Below, piece after piece: positions 2,292-43,659 of a stretch of 64,000 bases of DNA. Both the position numbers and the translations under genes were made by a program. Numbering within the stretch: position 1 is the stretch's first letter; each line of letters begins with the position of its first letter. The notes below the pieces were generated by a model. The model was given only the letters and a program-made list of their open reading frames with translations, ran no database searches and was not told the origin of the DNA. Source of the stretch: a virus; the IMG/VR virus record IMGVR_UViG_3300017830_000039. The stretch is one strand, 5' to 3'.

Positions 2292-3251
2292 TTAATTTTC
2301 CTCCTGTTCTGACTTCCATTTGCCTGCGAGGTCCTCGAGATACTTCTGAACGTCGTCCAGGAGGTCATCGGGGAGGGTGTGGTCCATCTTGACAACCAAT
2401 TGCCGCGGCTTGCGCGTCGCGGACAGGGCACCGTCGAGATAGACTGTCTTGGAACTCTGGACTGGCGTCTTGCGGGCCGGCTTGGGGAGGGAGGCACCCG
2501 TCCTGAGCTGGTCGTTCAGCGCATCGAACCGATCGACGCTGTCGAGGGATTGATCGACAAGGCCAGGGATCTCATCCTTTGGGACACCTGACTTTCGGAT
2601 CAGCTCAGCGAGACCCTCCCAGCGGCGACGGCCGATACCCCGTGCCGGCCCAATGGCGAGGACAACCTCCTCTCCGACATCTTTGTATACGGTGACCATC
2701 ATAGTGATCAGGGACCGGCTGACATTCAGGAACTCTCCGATCGCGTCATGGGTCAGATCGGATCCCAAGGCTTGTGATGCCGCTCGCGCCTTTTCGATGA
2801 AGCTCGTATCGAGGCGTTCGTTGTTCTCCACGCCCTGGAGGACGAAAGCCTCCTGATCCGAAAGCTTGCGGACGAAAGCCTTGATCGTGGGCTGCCCGAG
2901 GGCGCGGATCGCTGCAAGGCGCCGACGCCCCACGACGATCTCGTAGGGTTTGTCGCTCTGAACGATCCGAACGATAATCGGGATTTCCTGGCCCCGCTCC
3001 CGGATGTTCTCGATCAGGCTCTCGAGGTCCTCCTTGACGTCGATGCGGTCCTGGATCTTCGAATCCTGGATCTGATCGGTCGAGATCTCCTGATAGGTCC
3101 GCTCCGTGCCACCCTGAGCCGCGGTCCTGATATACTTGTCGCTGGCCGGCCCTGCCTTGACCAGCGGCTGGCGGCGCACACCCGTTCGAGCCGACTTCGT
3201 GCCGTCACCCTTAGGTTTCTCGCCTCCCGTATCGAAGACAGAGCGCGCCAT
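2292..3251 (-). CDS. repB: Plasmid partitioning protein RepB (ParB family)
   Basis: GQEIPIIVR, YEIVVGRRRLAA and EN-x-ER-x-D-x-SFIE motifs; stop/start overlap with repA. Confidence 0.93.
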   Translation of the reverse strand: MARSVFDTGGEKPKGDGTKSARTGVRRQPLVKAGPASDKYIRTAAQGGTERTYQEISTDQIQDSKIQDRIDVKEDLESLIENIRERGQEIPIIVRIVQSDKPYEIVVGRRRLAAIRALGQPTIKAFVRKLSDQEAFVLQGVENNERLDTSFIEKARAASQALGSDLTHDAIGEFLNVSRSLITMMVTVYKDVGEEVVLAIGPARGIGRRRWEGLAELIRKSGVPKDEIPGLVDQSLDSVDRFDALNDQLRTGASLPKPARKTPVQSSKTVYLDGALSATRKPRQLVVKMDHTLPDDLLDDVQKYLEDLAGKWKSEQEEN

Positions 3252-4546
3252 CAGGCGGCCTCCTCGTCACTCGCGAGACGCCCTCTGGACGTCATGATCT
3301 CGGTTTCGATTTCCAGGGCGATGCCATGGAGGCTCTCGAAGATCCTGTCATAGGTCTTACGCGTGAAGCTTGAGGGATCCACTTCGAGTAGTGGGTTCAT
3401 CGTGTTCCCCGCATCGGCAATCGCCGTGGAGCTCAGGAAGTCCGTAGTCATCATCGCTTCCCCTAGCGTGTTCCGCAGGAAGGCAGCCAACTGCAACTGA
3501 GCGGAGTCGTTCGGCGAATACCGTGTCAGCAGAAGCCGGATGAAGTCGTAGCGATGCGCCATATCCTTGTCCTCGCCCTCGATCTGATCCAGCGTGTTCG
3601 CGGCCAGCTGCAGGAACTTCACCAGGCTCACGACGTCCAGCATGCCGGCCGAGAGCGGGATAAGCATGGAGTTCGCCGCATAGAGTGTTGCGATCACCGC
3701 GAAGGACATGTGCGGAGGCGTGTCGAACAGGATCACGTCATAGCTGTCTTCGACCACCTGGAGGGAGTCAGCGATTCTCGAGTAGAAGGGACGACCATCC
3801 CGTGCCGCACGGGCCGTTTCGTATTCGAACTCCGTCAGGTTCAAAGATCCTGGGATGATATCGATGTTCGGGAAGTATGTTGCCTGGACCGCTTCCGTAA
3901 TGGGGATCCGTGGACGGCCGTGCTCCAGATCTTCATCATCCTCGTATTTGATAACGTCGTAGATGGAGGGAAGGTTATCGAGATCGGCGTGAACGTCGAA
4001 GAGGTCCGAACAACTTGCCTGCGGGTCAAGGTCCAGGAGCAGCACCTTAAAGCCTCGCGCGGCGAGAAACTGTGCGAGGTTGGACGCCGAGCTTGACTTG
4101 CCGACGCCGCCTTTAAGGTTATAAATCAATAGCTTAGAGGTCTTTTCACCTTCCATCTTTCCGGGCCAGTGCTCAAGTGGAATCTTCCCGGCATCGAAAA
4201 GCTTCTGCTGAATGATGTGGATATCTTCGAGCGAGTAGGTCTTCCGGTTTCCGGGCTCCATGACGCCCTCGGGCAGGCCCTCCATCGTTTTCAGGTGGTG
4301 CCGGAGGGTGTTGTACTTCATGCGGAAGCACAGATCCGCCATCTCACGGATCGTGAACCGGCGGAGGGGCTGATCGGATTTGCGTTTGTCCGGGGAAAGT
4401 AGGCGTTCCTGTTGTGCGGCCAAGGCCTCGCCGAGCTCGTCGCTCAGGTTCCACAGGTATTCAGACCCAAGAATTTCCATACTGCTCTGTCCTTGGTTTT
4501 CATTATTTTTACCAAGGTGTATATCAGCGTACCTGCGCACGTCCAC
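3251..4546 (-). CDS. repA: Plasmid partitioning ATPase RepA (ParA family)
   Basis: Deviant Walker A NLKGGVGKSS, DLDPQAS and FDTPP motifs; N-terminal HTH. Start codon uncertain. Confidence 0.95.
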   Translation of the reverse strand: MDVRRYADIHLGKNNENQGQSSMEILGSEYLWNLSDELGEALAAQQERLLSPDKRKSDQPLRRFTIREMADLCFRMKYNTLRHHLKTMEGLPEGVMEPGNRKTYSLEDIHIIQQKLFDAGKIPLEHWPGKMEGEKTSKLLIYNLKGGVGKSSSASNLAQFLAARGFKVLLLDLDPQASCSDLFDVHADLDNLPSIYDVIKYEDDEDLEHGRPRIPITEAVQATYFPNIDIIPGSLNLTEFEYETARAARDGRPFYSRIADSLQVVEDSYDVILFDTPPHMSFAVIATLYAANSMLIPLSAGMLDVVSLVKFLQLAANTLDQIEGEDKDMAHRYDFIRLLLTRYSPNDSAQLQLAAFLRNTLGEAMMTTDFLSSTAIADAGNTMNPLLEVDPSSFTRKTYDRIFESLHGIALEIETEIMTSRGRLASDEEAA

Positions 4547-12419: not shown

Positions 12420-12548
12420 CGCTCCGGCCGTCTTGCGGCGGGAAAGGCAGGGCTGAAACAGGCCCGGTAGGTCGAGCTGCTCCGTACGCGGGGCAGGGTG
12501 GGGCAACCCTCCAGGCCGAAGCGGGTTCAACTCCCGCCTGGAGCGACC
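12420..12548 (+). ncRNA. tRNA-like RNA (129 nt) with expanded variable region; not a canonical tRNA
   Basis: Acceptor stem CGCTCCGG/CTGGAGCG, T arm GCGGG-TTCAACT-CCCGC, D-like arm GTCT/AGGC, anticodon-like stem GGGCT/GGCCC with a 6-nt loop, two extra hairpins (UACG and GCAA loops), 3' end ACC. Confidence 0.75.
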
Positions 12549-12593
12549 TTGCGAAAAACATGCTTGCGCGCAGGTTTTTCGTGTGTCATTGCT

Positions 12594-12990
12594 GAGACGT
12601 CCTTCGGGACTATGGGCATAAAGGCGCTCACAATAGACGTTCTGGACCGGGGGGCGGTACCCCGCGGCTCCACCATATCTGCACCGGAAGGTCGGCGCGC
12701 GGGACAACGGTCGGACACCCAGCGCTGGAAAGGACCCTTCTTCCGATACAAGGCGGTGCAGATATGATGGGGCCGAAATAGGATCGACAGGCGTTCAAAA
12801 GGGTCAGCTTTGCTTCGGTGAGATACCACCGTTATCGGTTCGCAAAAGCTAGTTGCAAACACCAACGAAGCTCCGCGCGCCCTCGCTGCGTAAGCAGTAG
12901 GGTCACGCACCCGGAACCTCGGTTCCAGAAGTCCATGCGCTTAGCCGCGTATGGCGGGGTTCGCCGGCACCTGGCAACAGAAGCCGGCAC
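12594..12990 (+). ncRNA. ssrA: Two-piece (circularly permuted) tmRNA, tag ANTNEAPRALAA
   Basis: Acceptor piece ends CGGCTCC-A-CCA (12665-12675) after a T arm with GGCGGTA loop. Coding piece starts GGGGCCG (12769), giving a G3:U70 pair. TAGTT precedes resume codon GCA (12855); tag ORF ends TAA at 12893. 3' segment GGCGGGGTTCGCCGGCACCTGGCAACAGAAGCCGGC is alphaproteobacterial-type. Outer ends approximate. Confidence 0.93.
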
Positions 12991-13117
12991 CCGATTCCAT
13001 TGGGTGCATCTCTTCCGTTGGGCGCTCGCTGACGCTCGCTTGCAACAGAAGGTCGTGTATTCCCACATGTTCGAACACATGATCCACAACCTCGCGTCAC
13101 AGTGAAAATGGCATGTA

Positions 13118-23305: not shown

Positions 23306-25246
23306 TCAGATGAGCGCTTCCTGCTTGTTGTCTTCCGCCATGGCGTCGCGATACTCCTTGTAGTCGCGCCAGCTGTTGACCAGGGTCTTCAGGACCTCCT
23401 TGCGGGGGACCCGTACACGCTGATTGGACTTCGCTGTCCGCTGCCCGACGATCTTCGTGCGCGCCGTCAGGATCGGATCGCGGGCCTGGAGGTTCTCGCC
23501 TGTCTTCAGACCTTCCAGGAAATCCTCGGCCAGGTCGGGACGATCCCGACGGACGTGGTAGATCAGGTAGGTCATGATCCCTGCGGATCCGACGATCTTC
23601 ATAGCACGCGCCTTGGGATAGGCGGTCGCCATATCGGGATGTTTCTCGATGGTCGAGCGGATCTCGGAGGCTGTGGGACTAATCCCGGTGGAGAAGATCT
23701 CGATTCCGACATCCTCCTTCCACTGCAGGCGCGCGGCCGCGGCGAGGACCCGGTCATCCGCGTCCGTGCCGGATCTGATGCGCATCTTCTTGGTATGCGC
23801 ATCGAAGGTCGCGAAGGCCGCCTCGGGGATGTTCTTGGCGATCGGAACCTCGATCGGCATGTCGGCCTCGATACAGCCGTGAAGGCGGTGCTGGCCGTTG
23901 AGAAGGCGAACGCCTTTCTCCCGTGCGTCCTTGGCATCGGGATCGCCCGTGAAGCAGATCGGCTGAGCGTTCAGCATCCAGCTCCCGGCGATGATGTCCT
24001 TGGCGATGCTGTGCTTGTGGTCGTCCGAGAGGGCCCGGTTATCCCTGTTCAGGCGCAGATACTCCTGTGCCTTCTCAGGGGTCACCGTGCGCATCTGGAT
24101 CCGCTCGTCGCCACTGTCTTCCTCGTTGGCCTTGATCAACGTCTCCGCCAGCTCTCCCGAGAAGTCATCCGCGGCTTCTTCCGTGTCGTACTTGCCGTTC
24201 TTCAGGCCGGGATATCCGTCGACAATGGGAAGCCCCAGGTTCTCCGGCGCAAGCTCGGCCACCTTCTTGCGATTGGCGCGATGCCGCTTTGCCTTACCGA
24301 AGTCGGGGGTCCAGAAGTATTCCTCCTGCTTTTCACCCAGGCGGTTGCCGTCGCCATCTTCCTCGTTCTTCCGCCAGATGCAGAAATCGTTGAAGGCAAG
24401 GATCGAGATCGCCAGGATCTGGTCGATACTCATGCCCGTATGCTCGCGATCGTTCTCGCGGGCGACCTGCTGCTTGCGATGCTCCGCCTTGAGCTGGTTG
24501 GCCAGCATGCGCACGGGGCAGGGGAGACGGTAGCTGTCGATGTCGCGAAGTCCGGCGAGGAATTCCCGCAGCTCTTCACGTTTTCCGGCCTTGACCGCCA
24601 TGAAGGACAGGACCGGCCGGGGCGTAGAGTGCAGGAGGGAGCCGCGCGACCCTTCGGAGACGGAGACCGCTTCCATGAGTTCGGGATTGCCCTCGAGCAC
24701 CTGATCGAAGCGCGACCAGGAGATCTTCGAGGCGTCCTTGCCCAGGAGTCCGTTCTCGATCCGGATCAGCTTGGTCATCGTGCGCTGGAGCGAGCCTGCG
24801 AAATTGAAGCCGCGGCTCTCCAGGACGCCGGTATAGGTCCTGCGGCGGTGCTGGTCGATCGTGTGCAGCGTATCGGACCGCACGTTGCGCGCGACGACGG
24901 TCCGGAAGCTCTCGCCGCTCATGACGCAAGCCTCGAGGCGCGCGATGCCGTCGATCAGCTTACCATCGGGATCGAAGATGATGGGCATCCCGTTCAGGAT
25001 CCAGGCGCCGGACTTCATGATCTCGGCGTAGCCGCTGACGGTCTTCAGATCGCCTGCGATCCGCGGCTCACCCTTCTTGAATTTCTTGGTTTCCAGCCGT
25101 TCGGATCGTTCGGTGGATGTGTCGAGATACTTCGCGGCGACGTCCGGTGTGATGGTCTCGATCTTGAACTTGACCGGCTTCTCGCTTGGTGAAGAGGTAG
25201 CCTCGGTCTCTTGTATCTGACGTTCTGCTCTCTTGGCGGACGACAT
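23306..25246 (-). CDS. Protein with two tandem ParB/Srx-like (DGQHR-related) modules
   Basis: Repeat 1: TITPDVAAKYL...GAWILNGMPIIFD...LIDGIARL. Repeat 2: TVTPEKAQEYL...NR...GSWMLNAQPICF...LLNGQHRL. GAGG RBS before MSSAKRA. Confidence 0.72.
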   Translation of the reverse strand: MSSAKRAERQIQETEATSSPSEKPVKFKIETITPDVAAKYLDTSTERSERLETKKFKKGEPRIAGDLKTVSGYAEIMKSGAWILNGMPIIFDPDGKLIDGIARLEACVMSGESFRTVVARNVRSDTLHTIDQHRRRTYTGVLESRGFNFAGSLQRTMTKLIRIENGLLGKDASKISWSRFDQVLEGNPELMEAVSVSEGSRGSLLHSTPRPVLSFMAVKAGKREELREFLAGLRDIDSYRLPCPVRMLANQLKAEHRKQQVARENDREHTGMSIDQILAISILAFNDFCIWRKNEEDGDGNRLGEKQEEYFWTPDFGKAKRHRANRKKVAELAPENLGLPIVDGYPGLKNGKYDTEEAADDFSGELAETLIKANEEDSGDERIQMRTVTPEKAQEYLRLNRDNRALSDDHKHSIAKDIIAGSWMLNAQPICFTGDPDAKDAREKGVRLLNGQHRLHGCIEADMPIEVPIAKNIPEAAFATFDAHTKKMRIRSGTDADDRVLAAAARLQWKEDVGIEIFSTGISPTASEIRSTIEKHPDMATAYPKARAMKIVGSAGIMTYLIYHVRRDRPDLAEDFLEGLKTGENLQARDPILTARTKIVGQRTAKSNQRVRVPRKEVLKTLVNSWRDYKEYRDAMAEDNKQEALI

Positions 25247-25617
25247 ATATGACCTCGTTTTAGAAGGCCCCTCTTGCGGGGCGGGATGTGTGTGTATGAT
25301 CCGACGAAACGGCCCTTCGGACCATGTGTTCGGAATGCGGCCATTATGTGTGAAAAAAAATAGGAATGTCAAACGTGACCCGAAGATTTTCGGATGCGAA
25401 TTTCAAGTCAATCCCATAATTTTTCTGTGGCTATCACATAGAAAGTGCGCTTTCCCCTTGAATCAAGGGGTGTTCTTCGGTGTTGCGGCCATGCGCGCGT
25501 TGTTGCCTGCGGGTTCTCCACAGGCTCTCGACCCCATCTCGTTGGGATTTTCACGACCGGTTCATACTCTTCTCGGTAAGTCGAAAAACGGGGCGAACGC
25601 CCTCTCAGGAGATGCCC

Positions 25618-28600
25618 ATGCCCCTCAAGGTGAACATCAAGCGCAAGGATGCGAAATTCAAGGGCGACAAGCCGCGATACAATGCCGTGGTGTCTGGCCC
25701 CCGCGAGACCTTCACCCCTGCCCTGTGCCGTGCGCTGGAGATCCAGGGCCTGGCGCCGATGATGGATGAGGGTGGCCTGGTCGTCTGGAGCTCTATGCCC
25801 CAGATCGGGGGTCCGCCGTTCTACCTGGCACATCTTCTAGCGCATAAGCACAATGCGATGATCCATCCGAACTGCCGCCGTCAGGCCGTGGAGGTCGTCT
25901 CCAAACGGGAGGCGCGGGACGGGATCGACCACATCCTGGGGGCCCAGGGCGCCCTGCCCGCGGGGCGCATGGCGCTGCAGGTCATTGCGTCGAAAACCGA
26001 CTTCGCCGTGAACTGCGACGAGAACGACGATCAGCGTCGCGAATTTCTCGAAGCGGCCGGCTGGCTGCCCATCAAGAACATGAATCCGCGGATCGCTGAA
26101 AAACTGGGCACTCAGCCCTATCGCACGCGGGATCCGTTCATCGCCTCGAACCTGGAGCCGTTCATGTCTCCGGGAGCGAAAAAGCTGATGAAGGAAAAGA
26201 TCGCCGCGGCCGGCAAGTTCATCCGGGATTCCAAGAGCCACACGGCCGAGGGGGCCATGGATGTGCCGGCACCCGAGGGTCTCGGCTTTTTCCCGTTTCA
26301 GCGCAAGGGGATCACCATGGCGGTGGAATCCCCTGGTGGGGCGCTGATCGCGGACGATATGGGGCTCGGTAAAAGCTTGCCGCTTGACGCAAGAGTTCTG
26401 ACACCGGCAGGCTGGACTACGATGGGTGAGATCAGACTTGGCGATGAAGTCATCGGTTCCAGCGGTAAGCCAACCAAGGTCACGGGTGTCTATCCACAAG
26501 GGGATCTCGAGATCTTCCGCGTCACCTTTTCGGATGGCGCGACCGTCGAGTGCTGCGACCAGCATCTCTGGGCTGTAAACACGCCGGTGCGGAAGCGCCG
26601 CGGTAATCCTTGGCAGGTCAAACCGCTCAGTGAGATTCGTGCAGATCTTCACGATGCAGCCGGGAACCGGAAGCACTACATTCCAATGGTTTCACCTGTA
26701 GAATTTGACGAAAAAGCCCTGCCAATCGATCCCTACATTCTTGGCGTTCTTTTGGGGGACGGGGGTATCAAGTCGCATTGCGTCCGCATCTCATCCGTGG
26801 ATGAGCAGATCCTCGATCATGTAAGAGCAGCCCTCCCTGAAAGCCTCTCACTCCGCCATGTAACGAACTGCGACTACGCAATCTCCTCGGAAAGAGCCGG
26901 CGCGCCGAATGAAATCCGGCGGGCACTCGCTGATATGGGGCTGGCCGGGCTCGGCAGTGACGACAAGTTCGTGCCGAACGAATACTTGGTCTCGTCGGTG
27001 AGGCAACGGGTTTCGCTTCTGCAGGGCCTCATGGACACAGACGGCTTCATCTCGAAAACTGGTACTGTCCAGTTCTCCTCGAACTCACGCAAGCTATCGG
27101 ATCACGTATCAGAGATCGTGATGTCTCTCGGAGGGTGCGCGCGTCGCAGCTCCAAGGTGAGCGCAAGCGGCAAGGATCACCACTTCGTCACGATCTCGAT
27201 GCCAAATGGCATTTGTCCGTTCCGCCTTCAGCGGAAAGTCGATCGACATGAGGATAGAGTGAAATATCACCCTGCGCGCGGTTTCGCATCAGTAGAAGCC
27301 GTGGGCGTAAAAGCCGCTCAGTGCATCCGTGTTGCAGCTGACGACCACCTCTTTGTGACCGACGACTACATCCTGACCCACAACACGATGCAGGGCATCG
27401 GCGTCATCAACGCCCTGCCCGAAGCGAAGCGTATCTTGGTGATCAGCCAGGCCAACATGCGCATCAAGTGGGGCCAGGAAATCGAGAAGTGGAAGATCGA
27501 TCCAGAGCAGACCGTGGGTGTCGCCGAGAGCTCGAACTTCCCCGAGACCGATGTCTGCGTCATCAACTACGACATTCTCTCCAAGAACCTCGACGCCATG
27601 CATGCGGTCGAATGGGACCTCATCATCTGCGATGAGGCCCACAACATGAAGAACCCCGAGGCCCAGCGGACCCAGGCGGTTCTTGGTGACCTCCTCGATG
27701 CCGACGGAGCAAAGCCGCTTCCGCTCGCAAAGGGTGGCAAGGTGGTTCACCTCACCGGGACACCCAAGCCCAACCGGATCGACGAGCTCTGGCCGCTGAT
27801 TTCCTCAACGCGCCCCGACATCTGGGGTTCGGGCCCGGAGGACTTCCAGATCTTCCGCAACCGCTACTGCCCGCCGGTGCTGATCAAGAAGAAGATGCCG
27901 TCGAAGTTCAAGGGGCGGGAAGGGCGCGAGATCATCATCCCGATGCCCGGCAAGCCGATCCGCGAGACCGAGCTGCACCTGCGCCTGCGCGGCTCGGGTT
28001 CCTTTGTGCGTCGCATGAAGCGCGACAACCCTGACCTGCCGCCCAAGTTCCGCACGCCCCTCGACATCCCCGTGCGGCTGTCGAAGGAGGAGAAGGAAGC
28101 GCTGCGCAGCGTCGAATTCGATCTTCAGGAAATGCTGGCCAAGACCCGCGGTGGGGCCGTCCGCGAAGGTGAGACCACCCTGGCCGGGGCGGTGATCAGC
28201 CAGATCACGAAGATGAACCCGGACACGCCGGCCTTCCACGAGATGGCGCGGGTCCGCCGCAACCTCGGTCTGATCAAGGCGCCCCACTGCGCAAAGTTCA
28301 TCCTCGACGAACTGGAGGCAGAAAAGGAGTTCGCGCCGGAGAACCGGACCAAGACCGTGGTCTTCGCCCACCACAAGGATGTCATCAAGGTCATCCATGC
28401 CGAGGCCGAGAAGCGCATGAAGGGCGCCTTCCTTGTCTATGACGGCTCCGTGGGCTCTGCGAAAAAGAAACAGGACCTCGTCGACAGGTTCCAGACCGAC
28501 GACAAGATCCGCGGGATGATCATCTCGCTCTCGGGCAACTCGGGAATCACCCTGACCCAGTCGGCGCGGATGCGTGTGGTCGAGCCGGACTGGTCTCCGT

Positions 28601-28908
28601 CCAACATGATCCAGATCGAGGATCGCATCTGGCGCATCGGTCAGGAGAAGAACGTCGATATCGGCTACATGTCGGTCGCAGGCACGCTTGATGCGCGCAT
28701 CGGGATGGCGATTGCGGCCAAAATGGAAACAGACGAGCGCAGTATCAATTCGATATCCTTCCAGCATAAAGCCCCTAGCCAAATGGTTAGGGAAAATGTA
28801 AATGACGGATCAAGTTCGGTTCCGGTGGGGGAGCGGGACGAGGTGACCAACGAGAATGATGGAGAGAAGGAGCGGGAGGCTCAGACCGCCTTGCCGCTCT
28901 TCGAGTGA
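25618..28908 (+). CDS. SNF2/SWI2-family helicase containing an intein
   Basis: ADDMGLGK/T Walker A split by the intein; CDEAH, LTGTP, VVFAHH, GITLT and QIEDRIWRIGQ motifs; AGGAG RBS. Confidence 0.93.
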   Translation: MPLKVNIKRKDAKFKGDKPRYNAVVSGPRETFTPALCRALEIQGLAPMMDEGGLVVWSSMPQIGGPPFYLAHLLAHKHNAMIHPNCRRQAVEVVSKREARDGIDHILGAQGALPAGRMALQVIASKTDFAVNCDENDDQRREFLEAAGWLPIKNMNPRIAEKLGTQPYRTRDPFIASNLEPFMSPGAKKLMKEKIAAAGKFIRDSKSHTAEGAMDVPAPEGLGFFPFQRKGITMAVESPGGALIADDMGLGKSLPLDARVLTPAGWTTMGEIRLGDEVIGSSGKPTKVTGVYPQGDLEIFRVTFSDGATVECCDQHLWAVNTPVRKRRGNPWQVKPLSEIRADLHDAAGNRKHYIPMVSPVEFDEKALPIDPYILGVLLGDGGIKSHCVRISSVDEQILDHVRAALPESLSLRHVTNCDYAISSERAGAPNEIRRALADMGLAGLGSDDKFVPNEYLVSSVRQRVSLLQGLMDTDGFISKTGTVQFSSNSRKLSDHVSEIVMSLGGCARRSSKVSASGKDHHFVTISMPNGICPFRLQRKVDRHEDRVKYHPARGFASVEAVGVKAAQCIRVAADDHLFVTDDYILTHNTMQGIGVINALPEAKRILVISQANMRIKWGQEIEKWKIDPEQTVGVAESSNFPETDVCVINYDILSKNLDAMHAVEWDLIICDEAHNMKNPEAQRTQAVLGDLLDADGAKPLPLAKGGKVVHLTGTPKPNRIDELWPLISSTRPDIWGSGPEDFQIFRNRYCPPVLIKKKMPSKFKGREGREIIIPMPGKPIRETELHLRLRGSGSFVRRMKRDNPDLPPKFRTPLDIPVRLSKEEKEALRSVEFDLQEMLAKTRGGAVREGETTLAGAVISQITKMNPDTPAFHEMARVRRNLGLIKAPHCAKFILDELEAEKEFAPENRTKTVVFAHHKDVIKVIHAEAEKRMKGAFLVYDGSVGSAKKKQDLVDRFQTDDKIRGMIISLSGNSGITLTQSARMRVVEPDWSPSNMIQIEDRIWRIGQEKNVDIGYMSVAGTLDARIGMAIAAKMETDERSINSISFQHKAPSQMVRENVNDGSSSVPVGERDEVTNENDGEKEREAQTALPLFE
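26374..27384 (+). mobile_element. 337-aa intein with LAGLIDADG homing endonuclease
   Basis: GLGK|SLPLDARV...CCDQHLW...LGVLLGDG...LQGLMDTDG...AQCIRV...YILTHN|TMQ. Codon usage is visibly more AT-rich than the flanks. Confidence 0.95.
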
Positions 28909-35616: not shown

Positions 35617-35755
35617 GCATTTCTGCCCCTCTCCGCCGCCTGGGCCCGTGTCGGCAAGGATCTCAGGAAATCCGCCCTTCAGTCGTTTGGAATTTTCGCA
35701 CGGCTGACAGAAATTGGGATCAAGACAGACAGGTATACGAGACGGGGATTCTCAC

Positions 35756-38700
35756 ATGGCAGAGACGAACACGACCGGGACGCAAGGCGTTCAAATGGTC
35801 AACTGGGTCACCTTCCCCAAGAAACAGGCTCTTCTGAAGCGCCTGATCGACGACAAGGGAAACCCGGGTCTCATCCTTCGCGTGGCCGATAACGAAGACG
35901 GGGCGCACGTTGCGAAAATGGCGCAGGACAGCGGCTTCAAGATGCGTGCCACGGGCAACGTGCTGACGATGATCTTCGAGCGCGGCAAGCCCATTCCCTT
36001 CAAGACCTCCCAGATCGCGGAAATGATCGGCGGGGATCTGACACGGGTGTCCCGTGACAAGCTGATGTCCAAGGACATGGTGATCAACCTGTTCAAGCGG
36101 GCACCGCGGACCGAAGCCCAGGCCGAAGAGCAGAAGCCAGAGGCCCCGGCAGAGGAGGCCCCGAAGGCCGAGGCCATCGTGCCTGACCCTGACAGCATGG
36201 AGACCCTTGGTCTCAACATGCGTGGCGAGGAAGTCATCCGCGACCGCCAGGGGCGCTTCTTCCGCCGCGTCGTCGAGGAAGACGGCACCCATCAGTTCAT
36301 CCACGAAGCCGAAGGTGGTCAGCCCGCCCTGTTTCTGCGGGCCCGCAAGCCCGAGGACCTGAACGGCATCGCCGCGGGTATCGTGCGCATGGCGCGCCGT
36401 GGCACGCTGCACCAGCGCGACTTCGACCGCATCCTCGATGCCGCGCTCGAAGAGGGTCCGGATGGCCGGCTTCACATGGACCGCGAAGACGCGTTCGACC
36501 TGCTGCGCGAACAGATCCTGCGCCAGATCACCAATGTCGCCATCGACAAGGACAACGACCGCTCGAGCTTCTTCCAGGCCCTGCGCCTGTCGGCCAATAC
36601 CGGCTATGTCATCTCCCGCCCCACCAATTCCGGCGAGGAATTGCGCCCGGGCGCCGCGATGCTGTCGCTGTTCCGCCGCCTCTCGCGCGGTCATGACCGC
36701 GTCGATTTCCGTGGCGCGCGCGATCTCGGCGTGGCCCTGCCGCGTCTGAGCTCCGAGGACGCCGCCCTTCAGGTGCAGGATTTCTCGGAAGTCTCCGCAA
36801 ACGGCATGACCGACTACGCGATGAACGTCCTGTCGCGCCGCCCGGCGGAAGGCAGCTCGATCTTCATCCTTCCCTCCGATGTTCCCGAAGAGCATTTCGA
36901 GCGCCTGCGCTCCGAGATCGGCCGCAACTACGGCCTCGAGGCCGTGGCCGAGGTGGCTTCCGGGGTTGCCGATGGTGTACGTGACGGCAGAACCTTCAAC
37001 ATGATCTTCGTGGGCGAACGTCGCCCCGAGGCCCTCGAGAGCCTGCCCCAGGCCGCACTGCGCTCCTTCGCCGTGGCAACCGATGACGATCTGGTGTCGC
37101 TCGAGCGCGAGATCGCACGGTCCCGCACCCAGATCCGCGACTTCAACCGCGGCGAAGTCGAGGTCAGCGAAGCCGACAAGGATGACGATCGCGAAGAGAA
37201 CGTCCGCCAGCGTCCCTACCAGCCCCTCTCGAAGGCGGGCGAGCCTTTCACCATGATCCCGCGCGCCCTGGAAGGTGCAACGACCAAGGCCTTGAACCGG
37301 GTGGCTCGGGATTCGGAGCCCTATGGTGGCGCCGATGCGATGGTGGCGCGTGCCATGGGTCGCTCCGTTGCCGATCTCGGCGAGATCCTGACGCCCGAGC
37401 AGGTCGACGCCGTCGCCCTGCGCATGAACGCCGCCGAGCGCGGTCGCGGTTTCCTCGAAGCCGACCAGACCGGCGTCGGCAAGGGCCGCACCATGGCTGC
37501 CATGGTCAAGGTCCACCTGCGCGAAAAGCCCAGCAATCGTTGCGTCTACGTGACCGAGTCCGCGGCGATCAACGTCCCCGACGTGCTGCGCGATATCAAG
37601 GCCGTGGATGGCCTGAAGGAAGTGAAAGTCCTGCTGCTGACCTCCGGTTCGGAGTTCGTCGACGTGACCGTAGATCCGGCGACCGGCAAGGAGATCCGCC
37701 GCGAGATCCTGTCGCCCAAGCCCAAGCAGCGCCGCGAGATCTACGAGGCTGGCGACTGGCCGGGGGATTACAACCTGGTCATCACGACCTACTCCCAGTT
37801 CAACGTCAAGGAAGACGCGCCCCAGGCGCAGTGGCTGGCCAATGTCGCCAATGAAGACACGCTCTTCGTTCTCGACGAGGCCCATAACGCCCTGAACCCG
37901 CGCTCCAACACGGGCCGCAACTTCCGCGAGGCGCAGAAGAACCTGCCGCCGCAGAACGTGGCCTACGCCACCGGCACGCCCGCAAGGAACCCTCAGGGCA
38001 TGGATCTCTATGAGCCGCTTCTGCCCCAGGGCGAGGCTGCGAACGTGGCGGGCATCCTGGAGAACATCGCCTCCGGCGGGGAAGTGGCCCAGGAAGCCTT
38101 CGCGACGATGCTTGCCGAAGACGGCGTCATGATCCGTCGCGACCACGACCTGTCGGCGACCGATTACCAGGTGCATCTGCCCGAAGACCAGAAGATGCTG
38201 GAATATCAGGACACGATGAACCGCTTCTCTCCCATCGTGGAAGGGATGATCGATGTCTCCACCCAGATCGGCGAGATCGTGGGTCGGGCCCAGGCCGTGC
38301 AGTTCCGCCAGATGGTCAATAACGGCATGGATGAGCGCCAGGCGCGGTCCATGACCAATGAGCTGTCCCAGTATTCGCTGGCGATCGGTGGCCCGCTGTC
38401 GAACCTCGCACGGATCATGATGAACGCGATCAAGGTCGATCAGGTCGTCGAGGCCGCGGTCAACGAGATGGATCAGGGCCGCAAGCCGCTGATCACCTTC
38501 CACTCCACGAACGCGGCGCTGCTCAACGAGGTCAGCCGTTACGAGGACGGCACCCGTCTGACGGAAGAAGAGCTCGCAGAGCTGCCGGAGATGACGATCC
38601 GCGACCAGATCCGCAGGATCCACAACGGCCTCTACAAGATGAAGATCGACGGTCAGACCCTCGATCCGCGTCAGAACAATTCCGAGGCGATGCGCGCCTA

Positions 38701-41470
38701 TCGCGATTTCGCGGCTGGCGCCCGTGGCCGAAAGTCGAAACCACTCGACACGCTCATGGCGGCCGAGCGTATGCGCGCGGCCCTGACCCAGATCGGCGAT
38801 GTCGAGGCGCGCGATGCCGTGGCAACCGATTTCGCGGCGCTCGAGGCACAGGTCCTGCCCGCGGGCGACCTGCGCAACCTGCTCGTGGCCTATGCAGGGC
38901 TGACCACCGTCTCCTATTTCGAGGCAGACGCCGCCGCCCAGGCCATGGAGGCCTTCGATGCGGCTGTTTCCGCAACTCCGGACGATACGTTCGACGAAGA
39001 GCAGATGGCGACCATCGAGATTGCCATCGACGAGTATCAGAATGCGGCCGGTCCGACAGAACGTCGGGCAGCGGTCGAAAGCCTGCGCGGGATCATCCGC
39101 GGGGTCGAGCTGCCGCGGGTCGTGCCCGCGGAGATCCGCGAGGACCTGGCCGCGCTCGAAGAGCGGGTCGATGCCCTCGGTGGCGATCGCGCGCAATACG
39201 ATGCGATCAACGAGGCCTTCGAGCGGATCGAAGCCCTGATCGAAGAGATCCCGGATCTTCCGGTGTCTCCGGTCGACGCGCTCGTGGAGCGTCTCGAGGC
39301 GAACAACATCCGCACCGGCGAGATCTCCGGGCGCACCCTGTGCTACCGCGAGGGCCGCATCCAGAAGCGCTCCGGCCGCAACCGCAAGGAAATCGTCGAC
39401 AGCTTCAATGGCGGCGATCTCGATGCGCTGCTCTACAACTCCGCCGGTGCCACCGGTGGATCCTACCATGCCGGCGCGACCTTCGCTGACCAGCGTCCGC
39501 GGACCCTCGTGGAATTCGAGGCGCCGATCGATATCATCAAGTATGTCCAGGCCCAGGGCCGCGGCAACCGCTACGACCAGGTGGCATCGCCGAAGGTCCT
39601 CTCGGTGATGACCGGCCTCACGCCCGAAATGCGCATCCTGCAGCAGCGCAACGGCAAGCTGCGCTCGCTGGGCGCCTCGGTCGACGGCAACCGGTCGCAC
39701 CCGCTCCTGCTCGACGATGTGCCGGACCTGCTCAACAAGGTGGGCGACGAAGCCACACGCAACGTGCTCCTGTCGGCACCGGCCCTGGCGCGCCGTCTCG
39801 GCTTCCCGAAATTCGCCGAGGAAGACATGCTCAATGTCGCCGAGGTCGATGGTGGAAACGATCAGGGATCCGGAGTTGCGAAATCCGGCCTCGACAGCCT
39901 TGCAAACAAGGTCCTGGCCCGCTCGATCATGCTGCCTGCCCACGAGCAGGACGACCTGATCCAGAGGATTCGGATGGAGTTCGACGTGCTCATCGAGGAG
40001 CTCGAGAGCCGCAACGCCAACCCGCTGCGTCCCAAGGAGTTCGGCGGCACGGTCGACATCCGCACCACGACCATCTTCTCGGGCCAGGAGCTCGAAGAGG
40101 GCGATCTGGACACCTCGGTCTTCCTCGCGCCGGTTTACATGTCCACGGGCGAACATGACCTGGGCGAAGATCCGGTTGCAGCCGAACGGCTGGTAACCAT
40201 GGTCGAGCGCGCCATCACGATGCATGGCTCCGATGGCCTGAAGCCCTATGCCGACCGTATCACGCAGAACCTCGCAGGCCTCCTGCGTCCTTACCTGCCG
40301 GCCGGCTACGACATGGATGTGGCGCTCGACAATCCGGCGGACATCCCGGGCCGCTTCGCCCGGGAGCACGGCAAGATCACCGATCTGGCCTGGGTCCTGG
40401 AGAACCTCCAGCCGGGCGTCTCCGTGCGCTTCCCTTCGGCCTCGGATCTCGACGGCATGAAGGCCCGCACGATCGTGGACCTGATCCCACCGAAGGATCC
40501 GGCCCATTACGACATGGCTTCCGCCTACAAGATCAAGACGATCTGCCCGGGTGACAGCAAGCCCGAGACGATCGCCGTGTCGCGGATCGTGCAGAACAAG
40601 ATGGAAGACATCCGCTTCCGTCCCGGCATCTCCGACGGGTTCAACGACGCCTATCTGCGCGAATTCTCTGAAGCCGCGCAGCTGCGTCAGCTGATGCCGG
40701 TCCAGATCCTGGGCGGCAACATCCTGCAGGCGATCACCACGGCGAACCAGCACGATCTGGGCACGATCTCGCTCTATCGGGACGCCCAGGGCCAGGTGAA
40801 CCGCGGGATCCTCGTCCACGACACCAAGATCGACATGACGATGCTGCCCGTTCCGCTGCCCAACGCCACGGTCGCGGCAGAGGTCGTGACCCAGTTCGCC
40901 AGGGCGACTGGTGACTACCGCCGCGGCGATGCGTCCAGCTACATGCGGATCTGGGGATCGATGGACCCGGACGCGAAGGGTCCCGGCCCGCGCGACCTGG
41001 CCGACATGATCATCCGCATGACCTCGCGGACGGTGAAGATCGACATGCAGCCCCTGCGGACGTCGAATAGGGAATTCTACCTGTCGCGCCCCGGCTTCTA
41101 CGAGGCGGTTCACGGCAAGCCGATGCCCGAGACGATCCCGGATCGGGCGTTCCGCAAGCCTGGCACGAACCACAAGTACCTCGCGGAGTTCCGTGTCGAC
41201 ACGCCGGAGGGCCGCGACCGTCTCTACCGCGTGATGCAGCATCTCGAAGGCGTTCCGATGATGACGGATGGCGCCCACCGTGACCTGGTCAACGAGACCA
41301 TGGAGCTGATCAACCGGGATGGTCCGCGCGGCCTCGAATGCGAGGGCGCACAGGTCAACTTCTTCGAGGAAGAGGCCGGAGACGATGTGGAAGACGCCGT
41401 CGAGGTGCGTGCCGAGACCGAAGAGGACCGTGCCGAATGGGCCAATGATCTCAGCGAAGTGGAATTCTGA
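35756..41470 (+). CDS. Strawberry-notch family helicase/NTPase (about 1904 aa)
   Basis: ADQTGVGKGRT, TTYSQ, LDEAHNA, YATGT, EISGR, AGATGGSYHA and VQAQGRGNRYDQV motifs. Confidence 0.88.
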   Translation: MAETNTTGTQGVQMVNWVTFPKKQALLKRLIDDKGNPGLILRVADNEDGAHVAKMAQDSGFKMRATGNVLTMIFERGKPIPFKTSQIAEMIGGDLTRVSRDKLMSKDMVINLFKRAPRTEAQAEEQKPEAPAEEAPKAEAIVPDPDSMETLGLNMRGEEVIRDRQGRFFRRVVEEDGTHQFIHEAEGGQPALFLRARKPEDLNGIAAGIVRMARRGTLHQRDFDRILDAALEEGPDGRLHMDREDAFDLLREQILRQITNVAIDKDNDRSSFFQALRLSANTGYVISRPTNSGEELRPGAAMLSLFRRLSRGHDRVDFRGARDLGVALPRLSSEDAALQVQDFSEVSANGMTDYAMNVLSRRPAEGSSIFILPSDVPEEHFERLRSEIGRNYGLEAVAEVASGVADGVRDGRTFNMIFVGERRPEALESLPQAALRSFAVATDDDLVSLEREIARSRTQIRDFNRGEVEVSEADKDDDREENVRQRPYQPLSKAGEPFTMIPRALEGATTKALNRVARDSEPYGGADAMVARAMGRSVADLGEILTPEQVDAVALRMNAAERGRGFLEADQTGVGKGRTMAAMVKVHLREKPSNRCVYVTESAAINVPDVLRDIKAVDGLKEVKVLLLTSGSEFVDVTVDPATGKEIRREILSPKPKQRREIYEAGDWPGDYNLVITTYSQFNVKEDAPQAQWLANVANEDTLFVLDEAHNALNPRSNTGRNFREAQKNLPPQNVAYATGTPARNPQGMDLYEPLLPQGEAANVAGILENIASGGEVAQEAFATMLAEDGVMIRRDHDLSATDYQVHLPEDQKMLEYQDTMNRFSPIVEGMIDVSTQIGEIVGRAQAVQFRQMVNNGMDERQARSMTNELSQYSLAIGGPLSNLARIMMNAIKVDQVVEAAVNEMDQGRKPLITFHSTNAALLNEVSRYEDGTRLTEEELAELPEMTIRDQIRRIHNGLYKMKIDGQTLDPRQNNSEAMRAYRDFAAGARGRKSKPLDTLMAAERMRAALTQIGDVEARDAVATDFAALEAQVLPAGDLRNLLVAYAGLTTVSYFEADAAAQAMEAFDAAVSATPDDTFDEEQMATIEIAIDEYQNAAGPTERRAAVESLRGIIRGVELPRVVPAEIREDLAALEERVDALGGDRAQYDAINEAFERIEALIEEIPDLPVSPVDALVERLEANNIRTGEISGRTLCYREGRIQKRSGRNRKEIVDSFNGGDLDALLYNSAGATGGSYHAGATFADQRPRTLVEFEAPIDIIKYVQAQGRGNRYDQVASPKVLSVMTGLTPEMRILQQRNGKLRSLGASVDGNRSHPLLLDDVPDLLNKVGDEATRNVLLSAPALARRLGFPKFAEEDMLNVAEVDGGNDQGSGVAKSGLDSLANKVLARSIMLPAHEQDDLIQRIRMEFDVLIEELESRNANPLRPKEFGGTVDIRTTTIFSGQELEEGDLDTSVFLAPVYMSTGEHDLGEDPVAAERLVTMVERAITMHGSDGLKPYADRITQNLAGLLRPYLPAGYDMDVALDNPADIPGRFAREHGKITDLAWVLENLQPGVSVRFPSASDLDGMKARTIVDLIPPKDPAHYDMASAYKIKTICPGDSKPETIAVSRIVQNKMEDIRFRPGISDGFNDAYLREFSEAAQLRQLMPVQILGGNILQAITTANQHDLGTISLYRDAQGQVNRGILVHDTKIDMTMLPVPLPNATVAAEVVTQFARATGDYRRGDASSYMRIWGSMDPDAKGPGPRDLADMIIRMTSRTVKIDMQPLRTSNREFYLSRPGFYEAVHGKPMPETIPDRAFRKPGTNHKYLAEFRVDTPEGRDRLYRVMQHLEGVPMMTDGAHRDLVNETMELINRDGPRGLECEGAQVNFFEEEAGDDVEDAVEVRAETEEDRAEWANDLSEVEF

Positions 41471-43659
41471 TGCCGATCAAGATCGAAACCATGTCGAAGG
41501 AAGAGGAGACCCGGGCCGCCGGGTACCTCTGGACCACGGAAAACGACCCGACATGGCTCCGCTACCAGGTGGATTTCACCAATGGCGCCATGAAGGGGTT
41601 CCACGTCTCGAAATGCGAAGGCAGCGTGCCGCGGGTGACGCCCTTCCTTTATGATTTCAACGCGCCCCGCATGGCACAGCTCTACCATGAGCAGGTCGCC
41701 ATGGCGGCTCTGGCCGATATCGGGAAGGAAACCCTGATCCGGTCCGGCGAGGAGATGGAAGAAAAGAGCGTGGCGAGCCAGGTGGGGGCATGGCAGGACT
41801 TCATGAGCGCCTTCGGCAACGAGGCGAAGAACAAGGTCGCAGACGACCTCATCTCTTCGCGCTTCATCACCTATGACAGCGAGATGTCCGTGCCTTCGGG
41901 GATCCTGCGGGTCGGAAAGCGCGGTGCGATTTCGATGCCGCGCGGCCGCAATTTCCGCGTCGGCGCCCGGATGTCGGGCTTCGATGCCGTGAAGATCGCA
42001 CGCTCCAAGGGGCTTCCCCCTAAGCTCAAGGTCGGCGCCATGGGCGATCCGGACCTCGAACAGGCACAGAAGGCCCTTGCCCATGTGGAGCGCCCCAGCT
42101 CCCATGCGGTGGCCTGGTATGGCACCCGGGAAGCGAAGAAAGGGCGGATCCGCATGCAGGCGGCCGCGTCGATGCCGATCCTCGCGGGCCTGATCGCCGA
42201 TCGCCAGTCCCTGGCCTCGGCCGTGGACGAGATGCGACCGATCCAGCCCATCCTGATGGAGACCACCGGTCTCGGGAAGGCCGGCGTGAAGCGGATCGGC
42301 AAGCTGACCAAGCCCGCCCCCGTCGGGCGGATCTTCGAGGCTGGCGAGCGGATCGAGGGCGAGGATGCGCTGGGCGTGAACCGTGCCCGTCACACCCAGA
42401 TCTCGGGTTCCGTGCCGATCGACATGGCCTTGCGGTATCTCTCCGACCTGCCGCCCGATCGGGCGCCGCAGGACGACGAGAGCTGGCTGAAGTTCAACGA
42501 TATCCTCTCGGCCGTGGCGATCCCGCTCTACAACGCGACATCGATCCCTGTTTCGAAGATCCTCGAAGCCTCCAAGGGCAACTGGATCCAGTTCCATGAA
42601 AGCCTGGCCCTGGCGGCGGATTTCGAACCGGAAGATTTCGACCGGCGCACCATGGCCCTGACGACCATCGACGCCCTGGAGGCGATCGAGCATTTCAACA
42701 GGACCGCGCTCCTGCCCCAAGCCCTGGCCTCGATCAAGGAGACTGAACAGCCCGAGCCGTTCGTGAGCCGTGAATTCGTCGTCTCGGGTCTCGAAGCCGC
42801 CACCGATCTGATCGTGGGCAAGGCGAAGAACGTGGCCGTCCTGATGATGGAGGTATCGCGCCGTTACGCATCGCGGATCCCGGCGATGATGGAGATCGAG
42901 GGCAAGACGATGCTCGAAGCCACCGATCGTTCCAGCACGCGCTTCGCGGCCTATGCCGAGAACGCCTATCCGACGCTGACCGGAAGCTTCACGGCCTCCA
43001 ATGGTCTCGTGGTCCGGCCACTCAAGGATGGCGCGGAGCTGCAGGAGGAATCCCGCAGGCTCGGACACTGTGTCGGATCCTACCAGTCGAAGGCCCGCCG
43101 GACGCAGTGCCACATCTATTCGGTGCAGAACCAGTCGGGATCAGAGAGCTTCTCGACCTTCGAGTTCGCCGGCGTGGATGGAGGCGATCCGCGCGCGGCC
43201 GCGGCCGGCCTGCGCAAGGTGCAGCACCGGGCAGCGCGCAATGGCACGCCGTCGGAAGACTGCGCAAAGGCCTACAAGGAATTCTTCGATGCCCTCAAGG
43301 GCGGCGCGATCGACGTCAACCTGGAGGAAATCCAGTCCTGGCGCGAATGGCTCCGCGAGAGCGGGATGGATGCCAGCGTGGCGCGGGCAACCCCGGCGAC
43401 GACCTGGAAGTCGGTCCTCGAGCTCGACTGGGAGAACAACGACGCGCGTCTGGATTACTGGCGTGAGTGGGGCGAGGTCCTCGGCGGGCGCGTTGCGAAA
43501 TCGCCGCATCCCGGCGTGGTCTACTCCGAGAAGAAGGCCCAGGAACTCGTCGGCGCCATGTCTCCGCGGGCCGCGGCCCTGATGATCGAGCAGGCCCGCC
43601 AGGCAAAGGCCCGGCGCGAGGCGGAAAAGGAACGTGAAGATGATCCGCAACCGATGTGA
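41470..43659 (+). CDS. PcfJ-like domain protein
   Basis: C-terminal VRPL...EL-x-EES-x-x-LGHCVGSY...C-x-IYSV...ST-x-E; start overlaps the helicase stop. Confidence 0.75.
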   Translation: MPIKIETMSKEEETRAAGYLWTTENDPTWLRYQVDFTNGAMKGFHVSKCEGSVPRVTPFLYDFNAPRMAQLYHEQVAMAALADIGKETLIRSGEEMEEKSVASQVGAWQDFMSAFGNEAKNKVADDLISSRFITYDSEMSVPSGILRVGKRGAISMPRGRNFRVGARMSGFDAVKIARSKGLPPKLKVGAMGDPDLEQAQKALAHVERPSSHAVAWYGTREAKKGRIRMQAAASMPILAGLIADRQSLASAVDEMRPIQPILMETTGLGKAGVKRIGKLTKPAPVGRIFEAGERIEGEDALGVNRARHTQISGSVPIDMALRYLSDLPPDRAPQDDESWLKFNDILSAVAIPLYNATSIPVSKILEASKGNWIQFHESLALAADFEPEDFDRRTMALTTIDALEAIEHFNRTALLPQALASIKETEQPEPFVSREFVVSGLEAATDLIVGKAKNVAVLMMEVSRRYASRIPAMMEIEGKTMLEATDRSSTRFAAYAENAYPTLTGSFTASNGLVVRPLKDGAELQEESRRLGHCVGSYQSKARRTQCHIYSVQNQSGSESFSTFEFAGVDGGDPRAAAAGLRKVQHRAARNGTPSEDCAKAYKEFFDALKGGAIDVNLEEIQSWREWLRESGMDASVARATPATTWKSVLELDWENNDARLDYWREWGEVLGGRVAKSPHPGVVYSEKKAQELVGAMSPRAAALMIEQARQAKARREAEKEREDDPQPM

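Follow-up and report, generated by a model that had tools for sequence, protein, structure and literature searches.

Transfer-messenger RNA (tmRNA), the product of ssrA, is almost always encoded by one chromosomal gene, and the mobile copies known so far come mostly from phages. The ssrA gene of Caulobacter crescentus, reported by Keiler et al. in 2000, is said to be the canonical alphaproteobacterial two-piece tmRNA. The present analysis concerns a two-piece ssrA gene in 64 kb of DNA from IMG/VR virus record IMGVR_UViG_3300017830_000039 (this whole stretch of 64,000 nucleotides (nt) is called the window), where it lies near a repABC-type replication cassette. The tmRNA is robustly of Rhodobacterales type and strongly diverged, its fold has been maintained, and its tag peptide departs from chromosomal tags at three constrained positions. 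The explanation that we favour, with some reserve, is that an extrachromosomal mobile element of repABC type, resident in a sponge-associated alphaproteobacterium, captured an ssrA of Rhodobacterales ancestry, which has since adapted to it.

Mobile ssrA genes are on record for phages, for example the mycobacteriophage Bxz1 group and Bacillus phage G, and second or third ssrA alleles are "sometimes on a plasmid" (Hudson, Lau and Williams 2014, PMC4131195). Roseophages DSS3_MAL1 and MD18 carry a tmRNA gene of 409 nt with the tag ANTNAAPMEMAIAA (loci L198 and L199, 2944-3352). A complete alpha-type tmRNA gene of 402 nt (258.9 bits; ARAGORN tag VNDNNAGYALAA) is located on the 709-kb plasmid pBSY19_1 of Bosea sp. 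RAC05 (NZ_CP016463.1; L200, 5815-6216), with genes for NAD synthase and nicotinate phosphoribosyltransferase nearby. A preliminary description of the window, made from the sequence alone, had put the ssrA gene forward, together with an upstream tRNA-like RNA, as its best candidate for an undescribed system. Given the phage and plasmid genes already on record, that part of its interpretation is not supported, whereas the mobile context, the dependence on host SmpB and the altered tag are. It is unusual to find a unique tag and a clearly maintained structure together on a divergent repABC element, here one from the microbiome of a sponge.

The gene resembles Caulobacter-type tmRNA in its permuted order, a tRNA-like domain with G3:U70, an encoded CCA, the first pseudoknot (PK1), the resume codon GCA and the tag skeleton AN-N-AP-ALAA. 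It differs in its position near repABC on a mobile element and in an intervening segment of 93 nt, as opposed to roughly 20-30 nt; it is also the lowest-scoring of 151 Rhodobacterales-type genes and has a tag altered at three constrained positions. A location off the main chromosome is shared with the ssrA genes of Paracoccus (replicons of 1.4-2.2 Mb) and of Bosea pBSY19_1, and in P. denitrificans, the case checked, smpB was likewise not found alongside ssrA. Unlike the Paracoccus copies (84% identity, canonical tag, chromid-sized replicons), the element ssrA is highly diverged and has mobile-element and orphan genes as neighbours. With phage-borne tmRNAs it has in common its mobility, a non-canonical tag, dependence on host SmpB and, in the explanation favoured here, an accessory status; it also has a length of 405 nt, close to the 409 nt of the roseophage genes, and Thr at tag position 3 in common with them. 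However, it is 53% identical to the roseophage tmRNAs, stands outside any tRNA array and belongs to a repABC-type replicon in which no virion genes were recognized. Kinship with the roseophage tmRNAs was rejected on the basis of this identity and because the genes do not group together. As an accessory gene it would correspond to the second and third alleles of Hudson et al. (2014) in being an extra mobile tmRNA with a different tag. The host genomes are known in those cases, whereas this element is known from metagenomes and its tag and replicon have no close relative.

Structure, ancestry and tag of the element tmRNA

A single RNA gene was called by ARAGORN in the window, a permuted tmRNA at 12580-12984 on the plus strand with the tag ANTNEAPRALAA. 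The Rfam model RF01849 (alpha_tmRNA) matched the plus strand from 12560 to 12991 over its whole length (model positions 1-355) with 219.9 bits (E 2.4e-62; gathering score 50), and RF04321 (tmRNA_permuted) gave 129 bits on the same gene. Just two non-canonical pairs are flagged in the full-length RF01849 match, and the T arm and acceptor stem are without a mismatched pair. The preliminary description had claimed a complete two-piece permuted tmRNA at this place. Both programs call a full two-piece alphaproteobacterial tmRNA, and every coordinate given for its parts agrees with the sequence, ARAGORN and Rfam.

The gene (12560-12991, plus strand, as are all of its parts) is arranged as one precursor, with the CCA-ending acceptor piece upstream of the coding piece, an order that ARAGORN flags as permuted. 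The acceptor piece extends over 12595-12675, its 5' end being approximate, as judged from the sequence and the Rfam structure line. It contains the hairpin GUCC-UUCG-GGAC at its 5' end (12599-12610), a T arm without mismatches (12648-12664), the 3' acceptor strand CGGCTCC (12665-12671), the discriminator A (12672) and the encoded CCA (12673-12675). The coding piece (12769-12991) comprises the 5' acceptor strand GGGGCCG (12769-12775), the PK1 region, the tag frame and the 3' helices. Pairing of GGGGCCG with CGGCUCC gives a 7-bp acceptor stem with G3:U70. The tag reading frame (12855-12893) begins with the resume codon GCA at 12855, encodes ANTNEAPRALAA and ends at the stop codon TAA (12891-12893). 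Between the two pieces lies the 93-nt intervening segment (12676-12768), which is closed by a long helix that continues the acceptor helix. The acceptor stem and this segment together have a fold z-score of -4.18, and none of 200 shuffles folded as well. The segment is presumably excised during maturation. It exceeds the segment of chromosomal genes by about 70 nt, and the whole gene is 405 nt long as compared with 330-340 nt in most chromosomal Rhodobacterales. Since each sequence-level feature of a two-piece tmRNA is present, the gene is a full member of an already known family.

The structure of the element tmRNA was compared with an RNAalifold consensus derived from 30 chromosomal genes. 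Of the 78 consensus pairs the element tmRNA keeps 68, ten by double compensatory changes and two by one-sided changes. Four of the ten pairs scored as broken are an artefact of the ARAGORN 3' boundary, and three are in the intervening hairpin. Inspection of the sequence by eye, rather than a computation, suggests that the 3'-terminal hairpin is whole and has additional compensatory changes. The pattern of compensatory pairs indicates selection for the tmRNA fold along a long branch; the fold is maintained, not decaying. On this evidence the gene appears functional, and a function is proposed for it below.

Conservation of the fold is accompanied by strong divergence of the sequence. The RF01849 score of the element tmRNA (219.9 bits) lies below those of all 150 chromosomal tmRNAs (226.7-321.8 bits) in a survey of 151 species genomes of Rhodobacterales, the order of Marinovum genome G001, which was reached through a RepC relative. 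BLAST searches of 401 genomes of the class found the best tmRNA matches in Rhodobacterales, with 68-73% identity in the coding piece. When aligned, the element tmRNA is 67-76% identical to 30 Rhodobacterales tmRNAs and 60-68% identical to other alphaproteobacterial tmRNAs, and the 30 are 72-98% identical among themselves (median 82%). In maximum-likelihood trees it falls within Rhodobacterales, as part of a small and well-supported clade to which G001 also belongs (support 99/94 in the 39-row tree; 100/97 in the 72-row tree, where the clade has 10 rows). Its terminal branch is the longest in both sets (0.64 with 39 rows and 0.89 with 72 rows; median about 0.1).

The tag was compared with 63 chromosomal Rhodobacterales tags, 51 of which are twelve residues long. 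Across the 51, position 3 is D in 45 and N in six, position 5 is R, K, N or H only, and position 8 is V, M, L or I only; the remaining nine positions are nearly invariant. The element tag ANTNEAPRALAA has the consensus residue at nine positions, including the C-terminal ALAA, and deviates only at positions 3, 5 and 8. All three changes are non-conservative: T replaces Asp/Asn at position 3, E replaces a basic residue at position 5 and R replaces a hydrophobic residue at position 8. The tag is thus altered at three otherwise constrained positions. A degenerate pattern for the tag peptide had no match in 185,579 species genomes, IMG/VR or JGI metagenomes. The ALAA C-terminus is recognized by ClpX and ClpA (review PMC3985003). 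Thr3 (ANTN...) is common to the element tmRNA, the tmRNAs of roseophages DSS3_MAL1 and MD18 and one IMG/VR contig (L105), and was seen in none of the 63 chromosomal tags. Because the roseophage tmRNAs are 53% identical to that of the element and group apart from it, the shared Thr3 is either convergence or chance. As no chromosomal tag among the 63 carries Thr3, it may be convergence in mobile tmRNA copies.

Upstream elements and proposed role

The 9-mer TTGCGAAAA occurs 21 times in the window, where 0.23 copies are expected (sites include 11189, 12549, 13118, 20944, 31048, 34099/34121, 57552 and 59601). Many copies are upstream of start codons and point at them, and several are followed 16-17 nt downstream by a -10-like hexamer, such as TATAAT at the 20952 site. 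One -35-box-like copy (12549-12557, plus strand) faces the tmRNA gene, ahead of the Rfam match by three bases and of the first tmRNA hairpin by about 42 nt. The flanking contigs of the element have the motif as well; in 142 kb of chromosomal tmRNA loci there is a single copy. It looks like the -35 element, or an operator, of promoters that belong to the element, which suggests that the tmRNA gene may have become part of the transcription programme of the element.

This motif is preceded by a degenerate tRNA-like element (12461-12545, plus strand; from 12420 in the preliminary description), which has a good T arm and lacks a usable anticodon loop. It was called by ARAGORN only at thresholds of 80-90%, as tRNA-??? 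with a defective anticodon loop; ARAGORN defaults gave no tRNA in the window, and Rfam gave no tRNA match at 12461-12545. The minimum-energy fold has the acceptor stem and T arm noted earlier, but its z-score against shuffles is -0.35. The T arm agrees at 16 of 17 bases with that of the tRNA-Arg preceding the tmRNA in roseophages DSS3_MAL1 and MD18, the sole T-arm match among 60 tRNAs compared; the rest aligns unconvincingly. Decay of a tRNA in a former tRNA-tmRNA module may have left the tRNA-like element. Since its end comes immediately ahead of the motif, it need not belong to the tmRNA transcript. Its proposed place in a new system was not upheld, the call having been obtained at relaxed thresholds only and the fold being no better than that of shuffles.

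No smpB was detected in the window and two flanking loci (about 85 kb) by tblastn or by a hidden Markov model built from six genuine SmpB sequences plus two wrong-strand translations, which agrees with the preliminary claim for the window. With no smpB nearby, the element tmRNA would have to use host SmpB. For the proposed role we infer expression, processing, an accessory status and a benefit of the element tmRNA. The gene would be transcribed as one precursor, probably from a TTGCGAAAA-type promoter of the element, and the acceptor helix would form across the 93-nt intervening hairpin. By the Caulobacter paradigm, host RNase P and 3' processing enzymes would then release the CCA-ending acceptor piece and the coding piece. 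Host alanyl-tRNA synthetase would charge the tmRNA by means of G3:U70, host SmpB and EF-Tu would bring the charged tmRNA to stalled ribosomes, and translation would resume at GCA and add ANTNEAPRALAA. The ALAA end would retain the protease signal (ClpXP-type). Since the three tag changes at positions 3, 5 and 8 are outside this C-terminal signal, they could affect other recognition steps, for example adaptor binding. For as long as the element is present, an accessory tmRNA would increase the capacity for rescue or give tagged proteins a different fate.

A bolder possibility, which we consider doubtful, is that mobile elements of the roseobacter group carry their own tmRNAs with purposely re-designed tags, the change from Asp/Asn3 to Thr having occurred independently here and in the roseophages. 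It is just as doubtful that the charge reversal at position 5 and the Arg at position 8 on this element are part of such a re-design. If so, proteins rescued by the element tmRNA would escape adaptor-assisted delivery to ClpXP or be delivered differently; alternatively, the element RNA would compete with host tmRNA for SmpB. This could be a counter-measure against ribosome-stalling host toxins or defence systems, or a way of making the host dependent on the element.

The repABC-type element and its source

Exact-protein look-ups found genes of the window in the sponge metagenome assemblies ENA ERZ23486321 and ERZ922799 (BioProject PRJNA320446) and in Logan run SRR10406138. BioProject PRJNA320446 covers Lamellodysidea (Dysideidae) sponges, the microbiomes of which include Rhodobacteraceae genomes of about 2.5 Mb with a guanine-plus-cytosine (GC) content of 57-61% (PMC7313196). 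The GC content of the window is 62.5%. Two ENA assemblies, possibly from the same reads, show 100% identity at the tmRNA locus, and genes adjacent to it recur on a Logan contig of SRR10406138. A chimeric assembly was rejected in view of the identical linkage across three assemblies, two of which, those from ENA, may share their reads. The host is probably a sponge-associated alphaproteobacterium, a member of the Rhodobacteraceae.

The repABC cassette is about 8 kb to the left of the tmRNA gene, on the minus strand. It consists of repA for a ParA-type partition ATPase (3251-4480; TIGR03453, 317.7 bits over the full length, cut-off 348.45; Pfam AAA_31 and CbiA), repB for a ParB-type protein (2292-3251; TIGR03454, 200.2 bits, cut-off 201.5; Pfam ParB_N) and repC for the replication initiator (851-2059; Pfam RP-C, 86.1 bits, cut-off 24.4; NF040974 RepABC_RepC, 105.8 bits, cut-off 150). 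A tyrosine recombinase gene adjoins repC on the same strand (3-842), where it is cut by the window edge (396 amino acids in locus L001). The best NCBIfam matches of RepA, RepB and RepC are to repABC-specific models over nearly the full length, and all three are under the equivalog cut-offs, which indicates a divergent cassette. The nearest RepC among 5.8 billion proteins is 58% identical and lies on a 4.5-kb contig; the next, from Rhodobacteraceae plasmids, are at most 39% identical. The element is therefore a divergent repABC-type replicon without a sequenced close relative. The preliminary description had recognized a repABC replicon, and the RP-C initiator, the repA-repB-repC order and the many mobile-element genes bear it out, with divergence as an added feature. 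The longest RepC-bearing contig is in the 50-200 kb class. The gap between repB and repC is 232 nt, and all Rfam ctRNA families stayed below their gathering scores in the window. Near-identical DNA was found neither in PLSDB or phage records nor in 401 genomes of the family, where only matches of about 70% identity were obtained, in dinB and a ParB-like gene.

Across the window and about 25 kb of flanking sequence, the genes of mobile type include those for an N6/N4 DNA methylase, dUTPase, a GapR-like protein, RecJ and DinB. Further genes of the element encode an R2K ATP-grasp protein, a tandem ParB-like protein, a topoisomerase, PcfJ, UmuDC, SbcCD, a BCCT transporter, AbiEii, Fic, NADAR and SRAP, and orphans are numerous. 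About 90 kb of the element showed no core genes, and no capsid, portal, terminase or tail families were found by PHROGs and Pfam among scanned proteins sampled from those 90 kb. PHROGs and Pfam likewise showed no recognizable conjugation genes, and for flank genes two look-ups in a protein atlas were uninformative.

Several other genes of the element were noted. An insertion of LAGLIDADG type (Pfam LAGLIDADG_3, residues 511-568) splits an SNF2-family helicase gene (25480-28908, plus strand), which is consistent with the intein that had been proposed there. A Strawberry-notch-type helicase of 1918 amino acids (35714-41470, plus strand) is followed by a PcfJ-like protein (41470-43659, plus strand), and the tandem ParB-like protein (phrog_5931) is encoded at 23306-25372 on the minus strand. 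Such a set of helicase, PcfJ and ParB-like proteins is what the anti-restriction or leading regions of conjugative elements and phage-plasmids typically encode. On the right flank, two long same-strand runs (L131, 10799-19795, and L196, 9681-16293) hold about 16 genes without a Pfam or PHROG family. For one right-flank protein of 409 amino acids a language model hinted weakly at an ADP-ribosyltransferase (ART-PolyVal / AcrIF11-like). These orphan runs may conceal transfer or virion genes of the element.

Accessory copy, sole copy or phage remnant

The element ssrA is probably an accessory copy beside a chromosomal ssrA of the host, as phage-borne tmRNAs are. This reading draws on the mobile context without core genes, the element motif, the divergence combined with a kept structure, the altered tag and the analogy with phages. 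Several observations weigh against it, or against the capture by a mobile element on which it builds. Exactly one RF01849 match was present in 150 of the 151 Rhodobacterales genomes and none had two ssrA copies. In a class-wide sample a true second ssrA was found in one of 151 genomes, G262; also counted is the unpublished genome G191, whose one match is ordinary and on which no claim is based. The earlier statement that ssrA is normally single-copy is in line with both surveys. Sole ssrA genes without smpB occur on secondary replicons of Paracoccus, a genus of the same order. Rare second copies and sole copies on secondary replicons mean that base rates alone do not favour a second copy. In addition, the chromosomal tmRNA of G017 has a similarly long branch (0.86), the approximately unbiased (AU) test leaves a placement outside all sampled Rhodobacterales unrejected (p 0.45 and 0.13), and a consensus scan finds no sigma-70 promoter or intrinsic terminator.

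The second two-piece tmRNA of G262 (L194, G262:C5:288509-288849) is very divergent (72.8 bits; tag ANDNSPVAMAA). It is located directly behind tRNA-Trp, tRNA-Met and tRNA-Pro, an arrangement that constitutes a prophage-like tRNA-tmRNA module.

It is unlikely that the element ssrA is the only one of its host, relocated to a secondary replicon (chromid) that would then be indispensable, with an odd sequence owed to a fast-evolving or deep-branching symbiont lineage. The rarity of genomes with two ssrA genes, the position permitted by the AU test and the equally long branch of the G017 tmRNA are all compatible with a sole copy. PLSDB (72,556 records), queried with a typical roseobacter tmRNA, gave 14 matches. 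The full-length ones were confined to replicons of at least 1.46 Mb (Methylobacterium, and Paracoccus, Pseudorhodobacter and some mislabelled chromosomes, the last three with the Rhodobacterales-like genes) and the 709-kb Bosea plasmid. The 1.73-Mb replicon of P. denitrificans has a canonical ssrA with the tag ANDNRAPVALAA and no smpB. However, the tmRNAs of the Paracoccus chromids are ordinary (84% identical to the typical roseobacter gene, canonical tag ANDNRAPVALAA, 331 nt). The element has neither the lineage-typical tmRNA and tag nor, in about 90 kb, the core genes of a Paracoccus-type chromid. Instead, these 90 kb hold mobile-element, anti-defence and orphan genes, and its longest RepC-bearing contig falls in the 50-200 kb class. 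Its tag also breaks three positions that never vary in this way in the 51 twelve-residue chromosomal tags.

Somewhat less likely still is a phage-plasmid or other virus-like replicon, in which the tmRNA and the decayed tRNA would be the remnant of a phage translation-support module for lytic growth rather than serve plasmid maintenance. Roseophages DSS3_MAL1 and MD18 carry their tmRNA, with Thr3 in its tag, inside a tRNA array, the second tmRNA of G262 comes after three tRNAs, and non-canonical tags are common in alpha-type tmRNAs of viral contigs. The 16 of 17 T-arm bases in common with the phage tRNA-Arg fit such an origin, as do the phage-flavoured genes of the element (dUTPase, GapR-like, R2K ATP-grasp, PHROG-only families and the intein), and virion genes could hide in the long runs of orphan genes. 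Against this, capsid, portal, terminase and tail families were absent from the proteins scanned, ARAGORN defaults give no tRNA in the window and the tag pattern is absent from IMG/VR. The tmRNA itself, 53% identical to those of the roseophages, groups with chromosomal Rhodobacterales.

A non-functional relic, either a decaying duplicate or an attachment-site decoy for ssrA-targeting integrases, is very improbable: the lowest covariance-model score among Rhodobacterales, the tyrosine recombinase on the element and a mere tmRNA 3'-end fragment next to repA on a Sulfitobacter repABC plasmid would suit it, but G3:U70, the encoded CCA, the resume codon, the open ALAA-ending tag frame and the stop codon are all intact, the helices are kept by ten compensatory double substitutions and the model match is full-length with only two non-canonical pairs flagged. 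The fragment is on plasmid NZ_CP085168.1 of Sulfitobacter sp. DSM 110093 (L129/L137, 336151-336278), immediately upstream of repA and about 6 kb from an integrase. It gave a BLAST match of 52-58 nt and a sub-threshold covariance-model match of 128 nt (45.7 bits). It was rejected as a tmRNA gene because only the 3' end is present, and it looks like the attachment-site remnant of an ssrA-targeting element.

If the element ssrA were the only one of its host, it would document how a plasmid becomes indispensable. As a captured accessory gene, the reading preferred here, a structurally maintained copy of plasmid type with an element-specific motif and a tag changed only at three constrained positions would provide a clean natural experiment, one that bears on whether mobile elements re-program the protein quality control of their hosts.

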